A stretch of 64,000 nucleotides of DNA from a virus. Taxonomy: Duplodnaviria; Heunggongvirae; Uroviricota; Caudoviricetes. A model generated the notes under the pieces. It saw only the letters and a program-made list of their open reading frames with translations, was not told the DNA's origin and searched no databases. Shown here piece by piece: positions 28,509 through 32,838 of the stretch (positions are counted from its first letter, which is position 1; every line of letters starts with the position of its first letter). The stretch is taken from the IMG/VR virus record IMGVR_UViG_3300042360_000330, one strand, 5' to 3'. A program made the position numbers and the translations under genes.

Positions 28509-28535
28509 ATCGTAATTTTACAAAAGAGTTCATTG
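28509..28535 (+). promoter_or_regulatory. promoter-like box (TCGTAATTTTACAAAAG) driving the tRNA array
   Basis: Copy of the recurrent TTCGTA-N-TTTA motif placed about 25 nt upstream of the first tRNA. Confidence 0.45.
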
Positions 28536-28557
28536 ACATATTGGATAAAGTTAAAAG

Positions 28558-28641
28558 GGAAGACATCCGGCTGGATCAGGAGCGACTCTTGAAAAGTCGT
28601 AGCAGGTAACACTGTTGTGGGTTCGAGTCCCACGTCTTCCT
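28558..28641 (+). tRNA. tRNA-Ser(TGA)
   Basis: Acceptor GGAAGAC/GTCTTCC, anticodon arm CGACT-cttgaaa-AGTCG, long variable arm, T-arm GGGTTCGAGTCCCAC. Confidence 0.75.
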
Positions 28642-28647
28642 CAATAT

Positions 28648-28719
28648 TGGCTTATAGTGTAACGGTTAGCACAAAACACTTTGACTGTTTTAGTCTAGGT
28701 TCGAATCCTAGTAAGCCAA
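28648..28719 (+). tRNA. tRNA-Gln(TTG)
   Basis: Acceptor TGGCTTA/TAAGCCA, loop ctttgac, T-arm TAGGTTCGAATCCTA. Confidence 0.7.
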
Positions 28720-28728
28720 CAATAATTT

Positions 28729-28804
28729 CTGGTAGTAGAGGAGTCCGGTCTATCTCGCTCGCCTTGGACGCGAGAGCACGCAAGTTCGAATCTTGCCTAC
28801 CAGA
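28729..28804 (+). tRNA. tRNA-Pro(TGG)
   Basis: Acceptor CTGGTAG/CTACCAG, anticodon arm CTCGC-cttggac-GCGAG, T-arm GCAAGTTCGAATCTTGC. Confidence 0.6.
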
Positions 28805-28810
28805 CAAATT

Positions 28811-28883
28811 GCCTTCGAAGCTCATGTGGACGGGCACCGGGCTTTTAACTCGGGGGTAGTTGGTTCGAGGCCAACCGGGGGTA
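28811..28883 (+). tRNA. tRNA-Lys(TTT)
   Basis: Acceptor with 3 G-U pairs (GCCTTCG/CGGGGGT), anticodon arm CCGGG-cttttaa-CTCGG, T-arm GTTGGTTCGAGGCCAAC. Confidence 0.6.
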
Positions 28884-28931
28884 CAATCAAGTGGTTAATA
28901 CTAAACAATGGATTACAAAGGAAGTATATTT

Positions 28932-29002
28932 GCCTCGTTGGCGTAATGGGAGCGTATTTCTTTTACATGGAAATGGCAGTAGTTCGATTCTACTACGAGG
29001 TA
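28932..29002 (+). tRNA. tRNA-Val(TAC)
   Basis: Acceptor GCCTCGT/ACGAGGT (G1-U72), anticodon arm TTTCT-tttacat-GGAAA, T-arm AGTAGTTCGATTCTACT. Confidence 0.6.
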
Positions 29003-29010
29003 CAAAAATT

Positions 29011-29091
29011 GGGGACTAAAAGTCGTTCGGATACGACAGCGGGACTGTAAATCTCGTCCAATTGGGAGTGGTTCGAGTCCACTAGGCCCCA
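29011..29091 (+). tRNA. tRNA-Tyr(GTA)
   Basis: Anticodon arm CGGGA-ctgtaaa-TCTCG, extended variable arm, T-arm AGTGGTTCGAGTCCACT; one acceptor mismatch. Confidence 0.55.
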
Positions 29092-29096
29092 CAATT

Positions 29097-29169
29097 GGAC
29101 CTTTGGTATAGCTGGTGCGTACGCTAGTCTGAAGAACTAGAGGAGTAGGTTCGATTCCTACAGGGTCCA
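29097..29169 (+). tRNA. tRNA-Phe(GAA)
   Basis: Acceptor GGACCTT/AGGGTCC, anticodon arm CTAGT-ctgaaga-ACTAG, T-arm GTAGGTTCGATTCCTAC. Confidence 0.75.
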
Positions 29170-29174
29170 CAACC

Positions 29175-29246
29175 GGGTTTGTCGTATAAAGGTTATTACG
29201 GATGACTGTTAATCATCTTATGGAGGTTCGATTCCTCCCAGGCCCG
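29175..29246 (+). tRNA. tRNA-Asn(GTT)
   Basis: Anticodon arm GATGA-ctgttaa-TCATC, T-arm GGAGGTTCGATTCCTCC. Confidence 0.7.
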
Positions 29247-29254
29247 CAAAAATT

Positions 29255-29326
29255 GCTCCTATAGTAGAATGGTTAGCACACATCTCTGATAAGGATGAAA
29301 TGGAAGTTCAATTCTTCCTAGGAGTA
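29255..29326 (+). tRNA. tRNA-Ile(GAT)
   Basis: Acceptor GCTCCTA/TAGGAGT, anticodon arm CATCT-ctgataa-GGATG, T-arm GGAAGTTCAATTCTTCC. Confidence 0.7.
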
Positions 29327-29334
29327 CAAAAAAT

Positions 29335-30783: not shown

Positions 30784-30917
30784 TAAAGTAAGTTTGGAAA
30801 ACTAAAAATAAGTTCATATATTTAGGTATAAGAAAGAAATATCACCTACTACAAAACGGCGCGCGAAACAATAGAATCCCGACTTGTACTATCTGGCAGG
30901 TCAGATTAGGTGAATAG

Positions 30918-30989
30918 GGGCAATTGGTCGATTGGTTTAGGCACAGGATTGCAAACTCTGTTAGGTTGGTTCGATTCCAACATTGCCCT
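30918..30989 (+). tRNA. tRNA-Cys(GCA)
   Basis: Acceptor GGGCAAT/ATTGCCC, anticodon loop ttgcaaa, T-arm GGTTGGTTCGATTCCAACA. Confidence 0.55.
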
Positions 30990-31084
30990 CATTGAAGGTT
31001 CGACCCTCTACCAAATGTGTTACACCCACAGATGGATACTAAGAGGGAGCTACCGATTGATAAGTGGTCGCACACGCGACAAAT

Positions 31085-31158
31085 GCCCGAGTGGTGGAAT
31101 TGGCAGACACGCTAGACTTAGGATCTAGATATTGAGAGTTCGAGTCTCTCCTTGGGTA
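31085..31158 (+). tRNA. tRNA with Leu anticodon TAG, Leu-type D-arm, short variable arm
   Basis: GCCCGAG-TG-GTG-GAATTGGCAGA-CAC, anticodon arm CTAGA-cttagga-TCTAG, variable ATATT, T-arm GAGAGTTCGAGTCTCTC, discriminator A. Confidence 0.6.
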
Positions 31159-31235
31159 CAAATTAGAGTTAGCTTATAGTAAAGCAGCAGGGGCTAACCT
31201 GCAGAACGGATACGAAAACCGGCTCTAATTAATTT

Positions 31236-31309
31236 GCTTCTGACGCACAAATGGTGGTGCACTGGATTTGTAACCCAGAATAGAGTCGGTTCGATCCCGT
31301 CCAGAAGCT
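31236..31309 (+). tRNA. tRNA-Thr(TGT)
   Basis: Perfect acceptor GCTTCTG/CAGAAGC, D-stem GCAC/GTGC, anticodon loop tttgtaa, T-arm GTCGGTTCGATCCCGTC. Confidence 0.6.
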
Positions 31310-31470
31310 CAGCAGTCATTTGAATTAGCACTAGGACAATGACTATCAACGGAGGAAGCTAATCTCACGGTTGGTCCTGTAGGTTGTGGTTACCCGTAAA
31401 TCCACATAAAGAGACTCCTGCCAGGTAAAGTAGGTGGATGGTCCGGTTTTGGACTAAGCTTTACCAAACT

Positions 31471-31544
31471 GCAACATTCGCCTAGTAGGTATGGCACCAC
31501 ACTTCCAATGTGGAATAAGGCCGGTTCGAGACCGGCATGTTGCT
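31471..31544 (+). tRNA. tRNA-Gly(TCC)
   Basis: Perfect acceptor GCAACAT/ATGTTGC, anticodon arm CCACA-cttccaa-TGTGG, T-arm GCCGGTTCGAGACCGGC. Confidence 0.75.
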
Positions 31545-31601
31545 CAATCCAACTTTTGCATTAGGGTGGAAGGCTATAATATTTATAATAAAATATTAAG
31601 T

Positions 31602-32018
31602 ATGGAAACTTTAAAAAAATGTATAAGTTGTAAAGAAGATAAACATTTAAATGAATTTGCCTATAGTAAAGGTAAACCTAGAGAAAAATGTAAAGCATGT
31701 CTTAAAGAATATATGAATTCTCATTATAAAAGTAATAAAGATTCATATAAGGATTATGTTAAAAAAAGAAAAAAAGAATTAAAAAATTGGTATAATGAAT
31801 ATAAATCCAATTTAAAATGTGAAAAATGTGGAGAAAACCATCCCGCAGTTTTAGATTTTCATCATATTAATTCTAATGAAAAAGATTTTAGTATAGGTAC
31901 AGCTATGGGGGTAGGAAATTCTATTGAAACTATCTTAAAAGAAATTTCAAAATGTATGATTTTATGTTCAAATTGTCATAGAAAGTTACATTATGAAGAA
32001 AAAAATAAGTTGCTATAG
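31602..32018 (+). CDS. HNH endonuclease (second copy in tRNA array)
   Basis: Start moved to ATG 31602 (METLKKCISCK...) because ORF-track start 31491 lies inside tRNA-Gly; CEKCGENHPAVLDFHHIN...LCSNCHRKLHYEE HNH motif. Confidence 0.75.
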   Translation: METLKKCISCKEDKHLNEFAYSKGKPREKCKACLKEYMNSHYKSNKDSYKDYVKKRKKELKNWYNEYKSNLKCEKCGENHPAVLDFHHINSNEKDFSIGTAMGVGNSIETILKEISKCMILCSNCHRKLHYEEKNKLL

Positions 32019-32080
32019 TGAAGGGGTTAACACGTATCACTTTCTATGATAAGGCGAGGGTTCGAATCCCTCTAGCAATA
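32009..32080 (+). tRNA. tRNA-Glu(TTC)
   Basis: Acceptor GTTGCTA/TAGCAAT, anticodon arm TATCA-ctttcta-TGATA, T-arm GAGGGTTCGAATCCCTC; 5' end overlaps the HNH stop codon by 10 nt. Confidence 0.6.
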
Positions 32081-32155
32081 CAGAGCTCTTTATTCGTATT
32101 AGGAGGAATAGCTTAATCAGCTTCTAGATTTGACGACTCGGAAAGACGAGTAACT

Positions 32156-32230
32156 GGGGCTATAGTATAACGGCTATTACAATGGTTTTGCAAATCATAA
32201 ATTGGAGTTCGATTCTCCATAGCTCCACCA
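32156..32230 (+). tRNA. tRNA-Ala(TGC) with encoded CCA
   Basis: Acceptor GGGGCTA/TAGCTCC, anticodon arm ATGGT-tttgcaa-ATCAT, T-arm TGGAGTTCGATTCTCCA, followed by ACCA. Confidence 0.7.
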
Positions 32231-32313
32231 ATTGTAAATCACTGGTAATCAGCGGTGATGGATATAAAACTATCGAGGACTTAAATGTATGTAGGATAGC
32301 TGCTGATTAAACT

Positions 32314-32385
32314 GGTCTATTGGTCCAGGGGAATGGATGCCTGCCTGTCACGTAGGAGACCCGGGTTCGAATCCCGGATAGACCG
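32314..32385 (+). tRNA. tRNA-Asp(GTC)
   Basis: Perfect acceptor GGTCTAT/ATAGACC, anticodon arm CCTGC-ctgtcac-GTAGG, T-arm CCGGGTTCGAATCCCGG. Confidence 0.75.
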
Positions 32386-32395
32386 CTTATAAACT

Positions 32396-32463
32396 GCGTT
32401 AAAGTGTAAAGGTTGCATTCCGGTCTCATAAGCCGGAGGGGTGGTTCGAGTCCACGCTACGCT
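32396..32463 (+). tRNA. tRNA-like with CAT anticodon (possible initiator tRNA-fMet or degenerate copy)
   Basis: Anticodon arm CCGGT-ctcataa-GCCGG and T-arm GGTGGTTCGAGTCCAC are clear. Acceptor pairs only for 4 bp and a GCTAC direct duplication is present at the 3' end. Confidence 0.4.
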
Positions 32464-32763
32464 ACAAAGGACTAAATGGCGGTGTCAGGCACCCACTGCA
32501 GAGGGTACAAAGAAGAACCTGCTTTATATGCCTGTGAGATAGCATCTCGCCGGATAACACATTTAGTCATCTTAAAGCCGGTTTGACACTCCGCTTACGG
32601 GAGGTCAGTTTCTGGAGTAGAAACTGGGTTGTAGCAGTAAGATCTTTAAAAGTTTGTGATGTACAAAGTATGGGTTTTGCCTGCAAAGCGTGTTTACTGC
32701 TTATAAACACAACTTGAAAGTATAGAAAGGGGTGTAGGTCCGCTTTAACCGAACCCCTAGTAC
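32464..32763 (+). ncRNA. candidate structured non-coding RNA (about 300 nt, no ORF, no tRNA T-loop)
   Basis: Multiple strong local hairpins: CAGTTTCT-ggagt-AGAAACTG, GTGTTTA-ctgct-TAAACAC, GAGAT-agc-ATCTC, AGGGGT...ACCCCT. Lies between two tRNAs inside the array and has higher GC than its surroundings. Confidence 0.3.
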
Positions 32764-32838
32764 GTCCTTGTAGCTAAATTGGTGAAGGCGCTCGCCTCAT
32801 AAGCGAGAGATATGTGGGTTCGATCCCCACCGAGGACA
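32764..32838 (+). tRNA. tRNA-Met(CAT)
   Basis: Acceptor GTCCTTG/CGAGGAC, anticodon arm CTCGC-ctcataa-GCGAG, T-arm GTGGGTTCGATCCCCAC. Confidence 0.65.

Follow-up and report, generated by a model that had tools for sequence, protein, structure and literature searches.

Densely packed phage tRNA arrays with HNH genes are a well-known kind of feature. The tRNA transcript of T4 comprises eight tRNAs, the species I and II RNAs and segB, whose product targets a T-arm motif of tRNA genes (PMC2330249). Other viral tRNA clusters are reported to include HNH genes in their core gene set, with an interpretation as SegB-like (PMC6409571), and phage tRNAs have been proposed to counter tRNA-targeting defences (PMC10264068). 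The locus analysed here, in a window of 64,000 nucleotides (the whole stretch of DNA studied), is a genuine tRNA operon from a large uncultured relative of Flavobacterium phage immuto, and some of its details are new. The reading that we favour, with moderate confidence, is that of a two-unit tRNA operon that would provide independence from host tRNAs as well as repair, and that would carry a SegB-like nuclease (HNH#1) and an inserted homing-type nuclease (HNH#2).

Run with default settings over the whole 64-kb window, ARAGORN reports 24 tRNA genes. They all lie on the + strand within 28558-32839, with none outside that interval. A first-pass annotation, made from the letters alone, had described a phage tRNA array that has HNH genes inside it and at least 24 foldable tRNAs, and both statements are fully supported; its total of about 28 comes down to about 26. 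The Rfam tRNA model places 20 genes above its gathering score of 29, and at E<=1 it adds Ser-UGA (through the tRNA-Sec clan), Trp and a third CAU gene. At a 90% threshold ARAGORN reaches 27, the extra genes being Ser(GCU), Trp(CCA) and the initiator-like CAU, which are sub-threshold, yet conserved in relatives. The tRNA genes are as follows, each called by both ARAGORN and Rfam unless marked otherwise.

28558..28642, +, tRNA-Ser(UGA), class II (ARAGORN; Rfam clan match, 42.4 bits)
28648..28720, +, tRNA-Gln(UUG) (Rfam 68.4 bits)
28729..28805, +, tRNA-Pro(UGG)
28811..28884, +, tRNA-Lys(UUU)
28932..29003, +, tRNA-Val(UAC)
29012..29092, +, tRNA-Tyr(GUA), class II (ARAGORN only; absent from the Rfam list at E<=1)
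29097..29170, +, tRNA-Phe(GAA)
29175..29247, +, tRNA-Asn(GUU)
29255..29327, +, tRNA-Ile(GAU)
29461..29546, +, tRNA-Ser(GCU), class II, sub-threshold (ARAGORN at 90%)
29551..29621, +, CAU tRNA family 1, elongator Met or Ile2 (ARAGORN)
29625..29701, +, tRNA-Leu(GAG), short, 77 nt
29707..29778, +, tRNA-His(GUG)
29784..29857, +, tRNA-Leu(UAA), short, 74 nt
29960..30032, +, tRNA-Arg(ACG)
30037..30109, +, tRNA-Arg(UCU)
30115..30184, +, tRNA-Trp(CCA), sub-threshold (Rfam 27.2 bits; ARAGORN at 90%)
30918..30990, +, tRNA-Cys(GCA)
31085..31159, +, tRNA-Leu(UAG), short, 75 nt
31236..31310, +, tRNA-Thr(UGU)
31471..31545, +, tRNA-Gly(UCC)
32009..32081, +, tRNA-Glu(UUC)
32156..32230, +, tRNA-Ala(UGC)
32314..32386, +, tRNA-Asp(GUC)
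32395..32465, +, initiator-like tRNA(CAU) (Rfam 28.4 bits; ARAGORN at 90%)
32764..32839, +, CAU tRNA family 3, elongator Met or Ile2 (ARAGORN; Rfam 63 bits)

These roughly 26 tRNAs cover every codon box and all 20 amino acids, the latter provided that the sub-threshold Trp is counted, and the three CAT tRNAs announced earlier (at 29551, 32395 and 32764) are indeed there. The array holds 6.3 tRNA/kb at a GC content of 0.41, against 0.31 for the window. Tight spacing, first put at 5-10 nt, is confined to its first 60%, with gaps of 2-8 nt; after 30184 they measure 74-298 nt.

Several genes deserve comment. Most relatives have a Ser(GCU) call at the equivalent array position. The CAU gene of family 1, conserved in 21 loci, has an unusual T-loop (AUCGUUA) and folds as a cloverleaf at minimum free energy (z=-3.6). 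Trp(CCA), whose allele is 100% identical in three relatives (L007, L012 and L018), has a cloverleaf fold as well (z=-2.2). The initiator-like tRNA displays a U1xU72 mismatch, A73, and the G29:C41 and G30:C40 pairs; the 1:72 mismatch is found in every allele of its family, and in the allele of the window the acceptor stem is mismatched at two positions of its base. Differences from relatives in the acceptor stem of Glu(UUC) are all fully compensated. The Gly(UCC) allele is unlike that of most relatives, being 97% identical in L007, L019 and L026 and about 60% elsewhere. Among the array genes, only tRNA-Ala(UGC) encodes its CCA.

One ARAGORN call, 'tRNA-Ala(AGC)', had to be rejected: it has no U33, its anticodon stem contains a G.A pair, and it adopts a class-II shape that, to our knowledge, no tRNA-Ala has. 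It is a tRNA-like RNA.

The boundaries and probable transcription units of the array are set by the following elements.

28442..28482, +, intrinsic terminator upstream of the array (12-bp stem at 28442-28474, 9-nt loop, U8)
28489..28520, +, promoter box P1 (TTTG-N20-TAATTTTA), member of a recurrent box family
30793..30824, +, promoter box P2, inside the array, member of the same family
32868..32891, +, terminator-like hairpin at the array end (z=-5.8)

The preceding terminator and the phage promoter box proposed at the outset both hold. The former folds at -16 kcal/mol (z=-4.9, with 0/200 shuffles as good), and the box family is enriched in the window (25 found vs 13.2 expected, 0/100 shuffles reaching 25). 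The P1 region is conserved in relatives, as is P2, which corresponds to the 5' portion of the alignment of gap4 discussed below. The distal hairpin is followed by a -7 box, TTCGTATATTTA (32894-32905), that belongs to the following gene. Strong hairpin terminators are thus predicted at both bounds, and the array is probably transcribed as two units. From P1 (28489), transcription would yield 17 tRNAs, two tRNA-like RNAs and HNH#1; from P2 (30793), a structured leader, nine tRNAs that alternate with conserved RNAs of other kinds, and HNH#2. The internal promoter, the conserved structured spacer RNAs and a repair cassette are observations that go beyond the first-pass annotation.

Two HNH genes lie in the array, as had been noticed, and a putative third is found two genes upstream.

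30277..30783, +, HNH#1, 168-aa HNH nuclease (Pfam HNH_5 1e-14; PHROG 16726 1.7e-31)
31602..32018, +, HNH#2, 138-aa zinc-finger HNH nuclease (PHROG 2255 'HNH endonuclease' 1e-34)
27110..27787, +, putative HNH-type endonuclease, the third, HTH at its N-terminus (PHROG 14736 'HNH endonuclease' 2.6e-9)

The third, with a weak Pfam match to HTH_Tnp_1, is present in only 3/45 relatives. The two others had both been read as a signature of homing-driven mobility, and this fits one of them only. HNH#2, of GC 0.23 and with no Pfam match, occurs in none of the 45 related loci, and the Gly-Glu distance, 1-50 nt in most relatives, is 463 nt here. It is found with identical flanks in two other samples, where divergence is confined to its N-terminal half. 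Homologues 45% identical in Pseudomonas phage KIL4 and 68% identical in contig L165 sit in unrelated, differently ordered arrays. The predicted overlap with tRNA-Glu is real, measuring exactly 10 nt (32009-32018), so that the TAG stop codon is U8-A9-G10 of the tRNA, and the overlap is likewise 10 nt in KIL4 and L165. In this family the motifs LDFHH and CSNCHRxxH are invariant, 19/33 full-length homologues belong to tRNA arrays, and 10/12 Gly(UCC) genes of these array loci abut the HNH gene. HNH#2 is a strain-specific and, in our reading, recent insertion of a free-standing homing-type endonuclease. Its family specialises in tRNA arrays, preferentially beside tRNA-Gly(UCC), and ends on U8-A9-G10 of the following tRNA.

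HNH#1 behaves otherwise. Last gene of the first transcription unit, with an HNH domain nearest to those of IscB/Cas9, it occupies the equivalent position in 26 relatives (80-96% amino acid identity) and evolves under purifying selection (dN/dS = 0.11). These comparisons point to a fixed, selectively maintained operon gene and not to a recent mobile insertion. Homing genes are normally sporadic, and a homing role is uneasy with universal presence because homing needs empty sites. It might be that HNH#1 is no homing endonuclease at all, having been domesticated as a housekeeping nuclease that merely resides in the operon, for instance to nick or degrade host DNA or to act on a tRNA precursor or its DNA. 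Its presence in essentially every array-bearing relative, at one position, speaks for this, as does selection as strong as that on a core gene (0.11 vs 0.165), and the association with arrays holds down to about 50% identity, also across re-ordered arrays (30/32 homologues at >=50% identity sit in tRNA arrays). We nevertheless consider domestication rather unlikely: HNH#1 has the generic stand-alone architecture of known homing or nicking enzymes, with an intact CxxC...DH...N...CxxC, no domain points to another activity, the surrounding array is a recombinational mosaic, and the core HNH genes of other viral clusters were read as SegB-like (PMC6409571).

Most likely, HNH#1 would promote gene conversion of the array and its preferential inheritance in co-infections, in the manner of SegB in T4. 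While gene order is common to more than 20 related viral contigs, individual tRNA cassettes are mosaic allele by allele; such conversion would explain this cassette-like pattern. What is observed concerns single cassettes, and not the whole tRNA blocks initially envisaged as mobile.

The long gaps of the array, and two stretches of its first unit, contain the following further elements.

29334..29456, +, tRNA-like element, long insert between helices resembling an acceptor and a T-arm (z=-2.0)
29860..29954, +, class-II tRNA-like RNA, 95 nt, mis-called Ala(AGC) by ARAGORN
30842..30913, +, 'gap4' structured leader RNA
30991..31084, +, 'gap5' conserved 94-nt RNA (23 loci, about 90% identity)
31161..31230, +, 'gap6' tRNA-like cloverleaf (28 loci, about 94% identity)
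31311..31470, +, 'gap7' multi-hairpin RNA, 160 nt
32082..32155, +, 'gap9' spacer, 74 nt
32231..32313, +, 'gap10' spacer, 83 nt, long-hairpin fold (z=-1.8)
32466..32763, +, 'gap11' segment, 298 nt (fold z=-1.2)

The element at 29334 is specific to the window, with no homologue in relatives and a single '???' call at the ARAGORN 80% threshold. That at 29860, not found by Rfam at E<=1, combines an 8-bp acceptor, a Leu-like D-arm, a long variable arm and an aberrant anticodon loop (UAAGCGG); its one homologue (L007) has an anticodon arm aberrant in another way. Further on, gap4, with no Rfam match, forms a three-way junction made up of a closing stem of 7 bp, a long arm and a hairpin resembling a T-arm. 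Over 12 distinct sequences 99.2% of cells are paired and 7 pairs are changed on both sides, with 0/500 shuffles doing as well on paired cells and covariation score, and 4/500 on the count of double-changed pairs. In gap5, abutted by tRNAs at both ends, a long irregular hairpin with apical loop UUACACC and a 3' hairpin contain 5 covarying pairs; its core 24-mer occurs in 35 viral contigs and in 0/185,579 species genomes. The cloverleaf of gap6, whose 'anticodon' loop has 6 nt (GGCUAA) and whose T stem has 3 bp, is not a decoder; 98.4% of its cells are paired, 7 pairs are changed on both sides (0/500 shuffles), and RNAalifold and the single-sequence minimum free energy agree on the fold. Of the 43 pairs predicted in gap7, 6 show compensatory change among the 6 sequences compared. 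As for the others, gap9 is 100% identical in five loci (L009-L011, L163 and L164) with a fold that is not significant, gap10 has a homologue in L164 only, and gap11 has no full-length homologue in relatives.

By this comparative evidence the long 'spacers' are conserved, covarying RNAs without Rfam match. Perhaps they are nothing but decayed tRNA genes, or passive spacers for RNase P/Z processing devoid of function of their own. In both gap6 and gap4, helices resembling an acceptor and a T-arm are kept while a decodable anticodon loop is lacking, the gap6 'anticodon' arm is free to vary in both length and sequence, the elements stand only 0-3 nt from adjoining tRNAs, and relatives differ at equivalent positions by non-homologous cassettes. 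We see this as a minority possibility, if one to be taken seriously, in that conservation of gap5 and gap6 exceeds that of the neighbouring tRNAs, the loops UUACACC and GGCUAA are nearly invariant, and gap5 and gap4 are kept where nearly all tRNAs were lost (L008, phage immuto). On the reading that we prefer, the interspersed RNAs would be co-transcribed with the tRNAs and cut by RNase P/Z into stable RNAs.

What is the array for? Its tRNAs amount to a decoding set that is minimal yet complete, with U34 anticodons for all four-codon boxes and R-ending two-codon boxes, G34 anticodons for Y-ending boxes, and in addition Arg-ACG, Trp-CCA, an extra Leu-GAG and three CAU tRNAs, one initiator-like. 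The first-pass annotation had invoked compensation of codon bias. In the classical form of this idea, the phage would supply tRNAs for A/U-ending codons that it needs more than its host and thereby translate late genes faster. Phage codons do end in A or T in 83% of cases (third positions 44% A, 39% T), U34 tRNAs match the preferred NNA codons by Watson-Crick pairing, for 52% of all codons the phage encodes an exactly cognate tRNA, and ATA is frequent (476 codons), one CAU tRNA being possibly a lysidine-modified Ile2. Yet the set is a full one and shows no selectivity; an initiator is part of it, as are tRNAs for rare codons, such as Leu-GAG (CUC, 11 codons) and Arg-ACG. Cultured relatives infect Flavobacterium, the genomes of which are similarly AT-rich, which would leave little bias to compensate. 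Judged on phage codon usage only, compensation is neither needed nor specifically supported, and we hold it improbable. It also leaves unaccounted for the RNA-repair genes that follow the array.

32909..33559, +, calcineurin-type metallophosphoesterase (Pfam Metallophos 7e-8; PHROG 547 1e-44)
33560..33946, +, P-loop kinase (Pfam AAA_33 3e-11)
34055..35179, +, ATP-dependent RNA ligase of Rnl5 (DraRnl/NgrRnl) type (Pfam RNA_ligase)

By family and adjacency, the first, which is kept beside the array in 45 loci, is a candidate RNA 3'-end healing enzyme, and the second a candidate 5'-OH polynucleotide kinase, with PHROG matches to polynucleotide kinase and, in a kinase-ligase fusion, to the kinase end. 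The ligase has an N-terminal OB domain (PHA02142 OB) and matches the Naegleria RNA ligase (PDB 5cot, 1e-16) and TIGR02306 (1e-29, under the curated cut-off). Phage immuto has the phosphoesterase without kinase or ligase. Together, the three enzymes would heal and reseal cleaved tRNAs, which lends circumstantial support to the role against anticodon nucleases that had also been suggested. The tRNA set, for its part, would let the phage translate its AT-rich genes independently of the host tRNA pool, an independence useful, for example, if the host tRNAs run short or are cleaved by defence nucleases.

The closest analogue of the whole is the T4 tRNA cluster, with its tRNAs, species I/II RNAs and SegB: the role proposed for HNH#1 resembles that of SegB, and the interspersed RNAs would be the counterpart of the species I and II RNAs.

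The tRNA array of this phage holds about 26 tRNAs together with several tRNA-like elements. The first-pass annotation had put the number at about 28, which is close, and had named ARAGORN as a check: run at default settings over the whole window, this program returns 24 tRNA genes, all on the + strand between 28558 and 32839, and no tRNA gene outside these limits. Twenty of these calls score above the gathering score of the Rfam tRNA covariance model (29), two more candidates lie near that threshold (30115-30183, 27.2 bits; 32395-32464, 28.4 bits) and Ser-UGA appears as a tRNA-Sec-clan match in a permissive search (E<=1), so that two independent predictors agree (ARAGORN 24; Rfam 20 plus 3). 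At a 90% threshold ARAGORN identifies the two near-threshold candidates as Trp(CCA) and as a third CAU tRNA, and it also calls Ser(GCU) at 29461-29546; all three recur at matching places in the arrays of related phages, and the Trp allele is 100% identical in three loci. The 24-27 genes of the array occupy 4282 bp, a density of up to 6.3 per kb, and make it a viral tRNA cluster as defined by Morgado & Vicente (2019), for whom a cluster has 15 or more tRNA genes and 2 or more of them per kb. The GC content of the array is 0.41 vs 0.31 for the window. The elements discussed below are laid out as follows.

Layout of the array and its surroundings
7345, 28181, 28489, 30793, 35598, 38045, 45552, 49762, 53888, 54483, 55040 and 56000, + strand: promoter boxes of about 32 nt each, form TTTGG..AAA..TTCGTAWATTTA
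28442-28482: upstream terminator, a 12-bp hairpin followed by U8 (z=-4.9)
28489-28520, + strand: promoter box P1, form TTTG-N20-TAATTTTA
28558-32839, + strand: tRNA array
30277-30783, + strand: HNH#1, endonuclease gene
30793-30824, + strand: promoter box P2, ten bases 3' of the HNH#1 stop codon
30842-30913: gap4, spacer RNA just 3' of P2
30991-31084: gap5, spacer RNA
31161-31230: gap6, spacer RNA
31311-31470: gap7, spacer RNA (160 nt)
31602-32018, + strand: HNH#2, endonuclease gene
32868-32891: 10-bp hairpin closing the array (z=-5.8)
32909-33559: calcineurin-type metallophosphoesterase (Metallophos), directly after the array
33560-33946: P-loop kinase of the AAA_33 family, linked through PHROG to polynucleotide kinase
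34055-35179: RNA ligase with an N-terminal OB domain (Pfam RNA_ligase; Naegleria RNA ligase 5cot, 1e-16; TIGR02306, 1e-29)

U34 anticodons serve the four-codon boxes and the R-ending two-codon boxes (Ser UGA, Pro UGG, Thr UGU, Ala UGC, Val UAC, Gly UCC, Leu UAG, Leu UAA, Gln UUG, Lys UUU, Glu UUC, Arg UCU) and G34 anticodons the Y-ending boxes (Phe, Tyr, His, Asn, Asp, Cys, Ser GCU, Ile GAU), the remainder being Arg ACG, Trp CCA, an extra Leu GAG and three CAU species. Under established wobble pairing, this minimal set suffices to decode all 61 sense codons. Every codon box is served once the near-threshold Trp is accepted, which bears out the earlier claim that all amino acids are covered, and the three CAU tRNAs listed then do form three families, each recurring across relatives. 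The family of the gene at 32395-32465 looks initiator-like when compared with two marks of bacterial initiators, an unpaired 1:72 position and a run of three G:C pairs at the base of the anticodon stem: positions 1 and 72 are unpaired in every allele (UxU in the window; AxA, CxU or CxA in others), A73 is present in the family, and G:C pairs occupy the lower part of the anticodon stem, which in the window allele reads G29:C41, G30:C40, U31.G39 and in some relatives the full GGG/CCC. CAU families 1 (29551-29621) and 3 (32764-32839) are candidates for elongator Met and lysidine-dependent Ile2; the ATA codon count is 476. A comparison of codon usage with the anticodon set, which had been proposed for late genes, was made over 61 ORFs (15,423 codons): codons end in A or T in 83% of cases, and an exactly cognate phage tRNA exists for 52%. 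No trace of stop-codon recoding is seen, as reading through TAG or TGA adds only 1.0-1.5 kb of ORF coverage; TAG is the stop of 10 of the 63 ORFs.

Among the ARAGORN calls at default settings one is wrong, the 95-nt element at 29860-29954, listed as tRNA-Ala(AGC), which has a class-II shape, no U33 and a G.A pair in the anticodon stem. Its acceptor stem has 8 bp, its D-arm is Leu-like, its variable arm is long and its anticodon loop reads UAAGCGG; it finds no match in Rfam and folds no better than shuffled sequence (z=0.08); its sole homologue, in the related locus L007, has a different and equally aberrant anticodon arm. It lies near short tRNA-Leu genes. All three tRNA-Leu genes of the window are in fact short (74-77 nt; 29625-29701, 29784-29857 and 31085-31159) and are without the long variable arm that bacterial tRNA-Leu usually has, the Leu genes of homologous arrays elsewhere (L165, L038) measuring 82-87 nt. 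As for the 3' ends, a discriminator followed by C-A-A is found in 19 of the 27 tRNA genes and C at position 74 in 23 of them, with the full CCA encoded by tRNA-Ala(UGC) only; this suggests a common 3'-processing signal and reliance on a CCA-adding enzyme, as for several T4 tRNAs. The short spacers described earlier hold up to tRNA-Trp, where genes are 2-8 nt apart except for one 47-nt gap and one 133-nt tRNA-like element; beyond Trp they give way to spacers of 74-298 nt. The 133-nt element (29328-29460) was considered as the counterpart of a conserved element of about 128 nt that follows Ser(GCU) in relatives, and the two proved not to be homologous.

The promoter box and preceding terminator that had been noticed before the first tRNA are both confirmed. 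P1 belongs to a family enriched in the window (25 matches to a loose pattern vs 13.2 expected, a number reached in none of 100 shuffles), about 12 members of which are intergenic and on the + strand. This family is of the Bacteroidota type, with TTTG at -33, TAnnTTTA at -7 and a fixed 20-nt spacer. A scan for sigma-70 promoters found no enrichment (15 vs 14.7 expected), and the 'terminators' that came with it are T-arms of tRNAs. With a second copy of the box, P2, inside the array and the hairpin at its end, we infer that the array forms two transcription units. Two further observations concern its borders and centre. The -7 box of the phosphoesterase gene, TTCGTATATTTA (window 32894-32911), ends only 4 nt before the ATG, suggesting an mRNA that is leaderless or nearly so. 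Between tRNA-Trp and the start of HNH#1, at 30192-30244, lies a long imperfect hairpin (GGAGAA..GTAAGG / CCTTAC..TTCTCC), kept in the relative L024, which could be a processing site or could control translation of HNH#1, by analogy with what has been proposed for T4 segB.

Beyond Trp the spacers contain structured RNAs. One of them, gap6, is kept at about 94% identity in 28 loci and folds as a cloverleaf: 98.4% of its cells are paired, seven pairs have changed on both sides, none of 500 shuffles equals it, slid controls collapse, and the RNAalifold fold is also the single-sequence MFE fold. It is filed here as tRNA-like, since a canonical tRNA would show U33 in an anticodon loop of 7 nt and a T stem of 5 bp, and gap6 has a 6-nt loop, GGCUAA, and a T stem of 3 bp; the loop has other sequences or lengths in some relatives (L018, L028, L042). 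The first RNA after P2, gap4, forms a three-way junction that is closed by a 7-bp stem and includes a hairpin resembling a T-arm; 99.2% of its cells are paired and seven pairs have changed on both sides, with none of 500 shuffles reaching its paired-cell and covariation scores and 4 of 500 its number of double-changed pairs. In 23 loci gap5 hardly varies, its apical and 3' hairpins showing covariation; it is kept even in tRNA-poor relatives, Flavobacterium phage immuto among them, and its 24-nt core occurs in 35 viral contigs. That it was borrowed from a host RNA was considered and rejected, this core having no exact match in 185,579 species genomes. Four hairpins with six compensated pairs (six sequences) make up gap7. 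For gap7, as for the spacers gap9 and gap11 and the 95-nt element, single-sequence folding is not significant and only comparative analysis is informative. Searches at E<=1 gave no Rfam match for gap4 to gap7 or the other spacers besides tRNA and chance matches. The spacer RNAs directly adjoin tRNAs, at a distance of 0-3 nt, and would therefore be freed by the very RNase P and RNase Z cuts that release the tRNAs.

Relatives carry other, non-homologous structured cassettes at other positions. The element of about 128 nt after Ser(GCU), for instance at L002:7318-7445, shows visible compensatory changes, and an element of 66-88 nt lies between Leu(UAA) and Arg(ACG) (88 nt in L002); both are missing from the window, and the pool of array-embedded RNAs exceeds what the window holds. 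In the tRNA-poor locus L008 the slot of tRNA-Cys is occupied by a well-folded tRNA-like gene (3663-3733) with the 8-nt loop AGGCUAAU, which shares the GGCUAA motif with the gap6 loop (window 31195-31200). The CUA-containing loops of these two elements were considered as those of suppressor tRNAs and the idea was rejected, with no ORF gain on read-through; a suppressor role for GGCUAA-loop elements is unlikely because there is no recoding. The longest spacer, gap11 (32466-32763, 298 nt, between the initiator-like tRNA and the last tRNA), has a GC content of 0.44, only tiny ORFs, no full-length homologue in the relatives and no significant fold. Two annotations in the RefSeq record of immuto (L001, NC_055915) look doubtful: the hypothetical CDS gp238 (7915-8070) overlaps gap5 (L001:8001-8092), and the 86-nt 'tRNA-Cys' at 7422-7507 is Thr(GGU) according to ARAGORN at a relaxed threshold.

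The phage just named, vB_FspM_immuto, is the nearest cultured relative, at 87% nucleotide identity over only 12% of the region, and has just 3-4 tRNAs before the same phosphoesterase gene. With this gene as an anchor 45 viral contigs were recovered, more than 20 of which have arrays of 15-25 tRNAs in the same order. Their tRNA alleles form a mosaic, being either 97-100% or about 60% identical to those of the window in combinations that differ among contigs; as cases in point, Thr is 100% identical in L002 and L009, Gly 97% in L007, L019 and L026, and Asp 100% in L007 and L018. Such a mosaic points to frequent recombination in the array. Elsewhere in the window, an ORF-poor stretch at 50930-58083, with a GC content of 0.37-0.38, four promoter boxes and many + strand ORFs of 55-120 aa, was considered as a second RNA array; there are no tRNA or Rfam matches at 51-58 kb, and it is probably a block of small early genes.

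That two HNH endonuclease genes lie inside the array, one of them overlapped by tRNA-Glu, is upheld. The homing-type mobility that the first-pass annotation had read from them fits one gene, HNH#2, and does not fit the other, HNH#1. The product of HNH#2 (138 aa) matches PHROG 2255 'HNH endonuclease' (1e-34) and has no Pfam match; in an alignment of 17 homologues the LDFHH and CSNCHRxxH motifs are invariant, together with two CxxC pairs. Its catalytic motif is thus intact, and the gene is missing at a conserved site in close relatives: there is no homologue in the 45 related loci, and the distance from Gly to Glu is 463 nt in the window vs usually 1-50 nt in relatives. Its GC content is 0.23. 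The flanking Gly allele and the Glu acceptor stem are unlike those of most relatives, and the same Gly allele is found without an HNH gene in L007, L019 and L026. The Gly-HNH#2-Glu arrangement also occurs, with identical flanks, on two short contigs from other samples (L163:425-841 and L164:184-600). There the flanks and the C-terminal half are 100% identical to window 31602-32018, and a divergence of about 10% is restricted to the N-terminal zinc-finger half, a pattern that points to recombination within the gene and possibly to a swap of DNA-binding specificity.

The 3' end of HNH#2 overlaps tRNA-Glu (start 32009) by exactly 10 nt. A homologue 45% identical sits in the tRNA array of Pseudomonas phage KIL4 and overlaps tRNA-Gly by 10 nt, its stop codon lying, as in the window, on tRNA positions 8-10; another, 68% identical, sits in the 23-tRNA array of L165, which has a different order; this gene follows Gly(UCC) at about 50 nt and shares 10 nt with Arg(UCU). 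Of 80 viral loci that carry members of the family, six have the exact 10-nt overlap with the next tRNA (stop TAG; six tRNA species) and six a 15-nt overlap (stop TAA). Distinct full-length homologues are in arrays in 19 cases out of 33, vs 5 of 47 N-terminally shorter ones, and at the array loci Gly(UCC) directly abuts the HNH gene in 10 of 12 cases, being only 4% of the tRNAs there, with the reservation that some of the loci counted are related to one another and hence not fully independent. The tRNA-cluster literature that we found makes no mention of the stop-on-positions-8-10 register or of a preference for Gly(UCC) as neighbour. HNH#2 is probably mobile and its family specialised in tRNA arrays; from its sequence it is a putative free-standing homing-type endonuclease whose target would lie in or beside tRNA-Gly(UCC).

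HNH#1 tells another story. Its product (168 aa; Pfam HNH_5 and HNH, 1e-14; PHROG 16726) has a nuclease domain nearest to the IscB/Cas9-type HNH and to the Geobacter HNH structure 4h9d, with an intact motif (CxxC, DH, N, CxxC, kept in 16 sequences). Homologues at 80-96% amino acid identity occupy the same place in 26 relatives, so that the sporadic presence of a free-standing homing gene among close relatives is not seen, and dN/dS is 0.11 vs 0.165 for the neighbouring phosphoesterase. More widely, 19 of 21 homologues at 70% identity or above and 11 of 11 at 50-69% lie inside tRNA arrays, and only 8 of 48 below 50%. Where arrays are re-ordered, the homologue mostly comes last, behind ...Leu(UAA)/Arg(UCU), and the array of L166 has both an equally long homologue, 38% identical, and an HNH#2-like gene. 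Such a pattern is unlike that of a recent selfish insertion: HNH#1 may be either a SegB-like enzyme that has long resided in the array, protecting and spreading it, or a domesticated one. A bolder proposal, which we think improbable, would make gap4, the 94-nt gap5, gap6 with its non-decoding loop and gap7 new phage stable-RNA families active in conflict over tRNAs. They might serve as decoys or sponges for those host defence nucleases that bind tRNA, or as cofactors of the repair enzymes or of HNH#1, and HNH#1 itself would be a domesticated operon partner rather than selfish. A 225-aa ORF (27110-27787) two genes before the array, with weak HTH and HNH-endonuclease PHROG matches, is present in only 3 of the 45 relatives; it may be a third mobile endonuclease.

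Downstream of the array, the phosphoesterase, kinase and ligase domains are encoded together, and the kinase and ligase genes are kept next to the phosphoesterase gene in most relatives. The ligase has an OB domain (PHA02142, residues 10-94), an RNA_ligase domain (162-357) and the KxxG motif as K-I-H-G in translation; an N-terminal OB domain with a nucleotidyltransferase domain bearing KxxG is the Rnl5 (DraRnl/NgrRnl) arrangement, with a score against the DRB0094 family TIGR02306 (103.6 bits) below the 151-bit cut-off. Sequence searches of the PDB gave no match for the kinase and only a weak one for the phosphoesterase. Side by side, these genes would cover all three chemistries that RNA healing and sealing requires (PMC1920235). 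Healing and sealing enzymes of T4 reverse anticodon-nuclease damage (PMC10264068).

Phage tRNA arrays with homing endonucleases have been known since T4, and the finding is in itself unsurprising. The nearest analogue is the tRNA cluster of T4, where eight tRNAs, the species I and II RNAs and the segB mRNA all come from a single transcript, and where SegB cuts tRNA genes at a T-arm motif and drives inheritance of neighbouring tRNA genes (PMC2330249). Both clusters have, in the window by prediction, a promoter-driven transcript, packed tRNAs most of which lack an encoded CCA, stable RNAs that are not tRNAs and a free-standing endonuclease gene, which in the window too is embedded in, and co-oriented with, a tRNA cluster encoding non-tRNA RNAs. 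The likeness would extend to an endonuclease that targets tRNA genes and drags their neighbours along, if the role read from sequence for the window enzymes is right. The differences are as clear. T4 has eight tRNAs, whereas the window has about 26 that cover all amino acids, probably in two transcription units; SegB is a GIY-YIG enzyme, whereas those of the window are two unrelated HNH enzymes, one fixed and one recently inserted; and, unlike T4, the window has at least four structured RNAs with sequences unrelated to anything in Rfam.

In gene content, the clusters of FelixO1-like phages (e.g. Pseudomonas phage KIL4) and mycobacteriophages come near, with 15-37 tRNAs at 2-10 per kb, sometimes all 20 isotypes, and HNH members (PMC3185647, PMC6409571); viral surveys report eight clusters of this size with all 20 isotypes and HNH genes that are core in some (PMC6409571). 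The window differs in lineage (Immutovirus-like, with Bacteroidota-type promoters) and in tRNA order. Its dozens of syntenic, mosaic relatives make a good natural data set for the cassette-by-cassette building and reshuffling of arrays.

As to repair, T4 Pnkp with Rnl1/Rnl2, and bacterial Pnkp with its kinase, calcineurin-type phosphoesterase and ligase, bring the same three chemistries together (PMC1920235), the T4 enzymes repairing tRNA cut by the anticodon nuclease PrrC. In the window the phosphoesterase, the kinase and the ligase follow one another as small ORFs of their own, and the ligase, of predicted activity, is of the Rnl5 type and not Rnl1/Rnl2 or a Pnkp ligase domain. Phage tRNAs proposed to act against defence (PMC10264068) likewise come as a large set in a virulent-type phage for which codon bias offers no obvious explanation; that case rests on differences between phage and host anticodon loops. 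With a complete decoder set next to three genes for RNA healing and sealing, the locus is a clear candidate for an anti-defence module of Bacteroidota phages. To our knowledge, tRNA-targeting defences have been little studied in Bacteroidota.

Functions of the array, the HNH genes, the RNAs and the repair cassette are all predicted here from sequence. The window stands apart from these systems in several respects. Two HNH families are contrasted in one operon, HNH#1 fixed under purifying selection and HNH#2 freshly inserted, and both are concrete targets for work on homing specificity. HNH#2 is associated with tRNA-Gly(UCC), and the next tRNA lends it a stop codon in the form of U8-A9-G10. Candidates for new phage RNA families are the RNAs, four at least, that covariation supports and that have no family in Rfam. 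It is this fixed and fresh pair of HNH genes, the Gly(UCC) association with its stop on U8-A9-G10, the four family-less RNAs and the adjoining Rnl5-based repair cassette that are new here.
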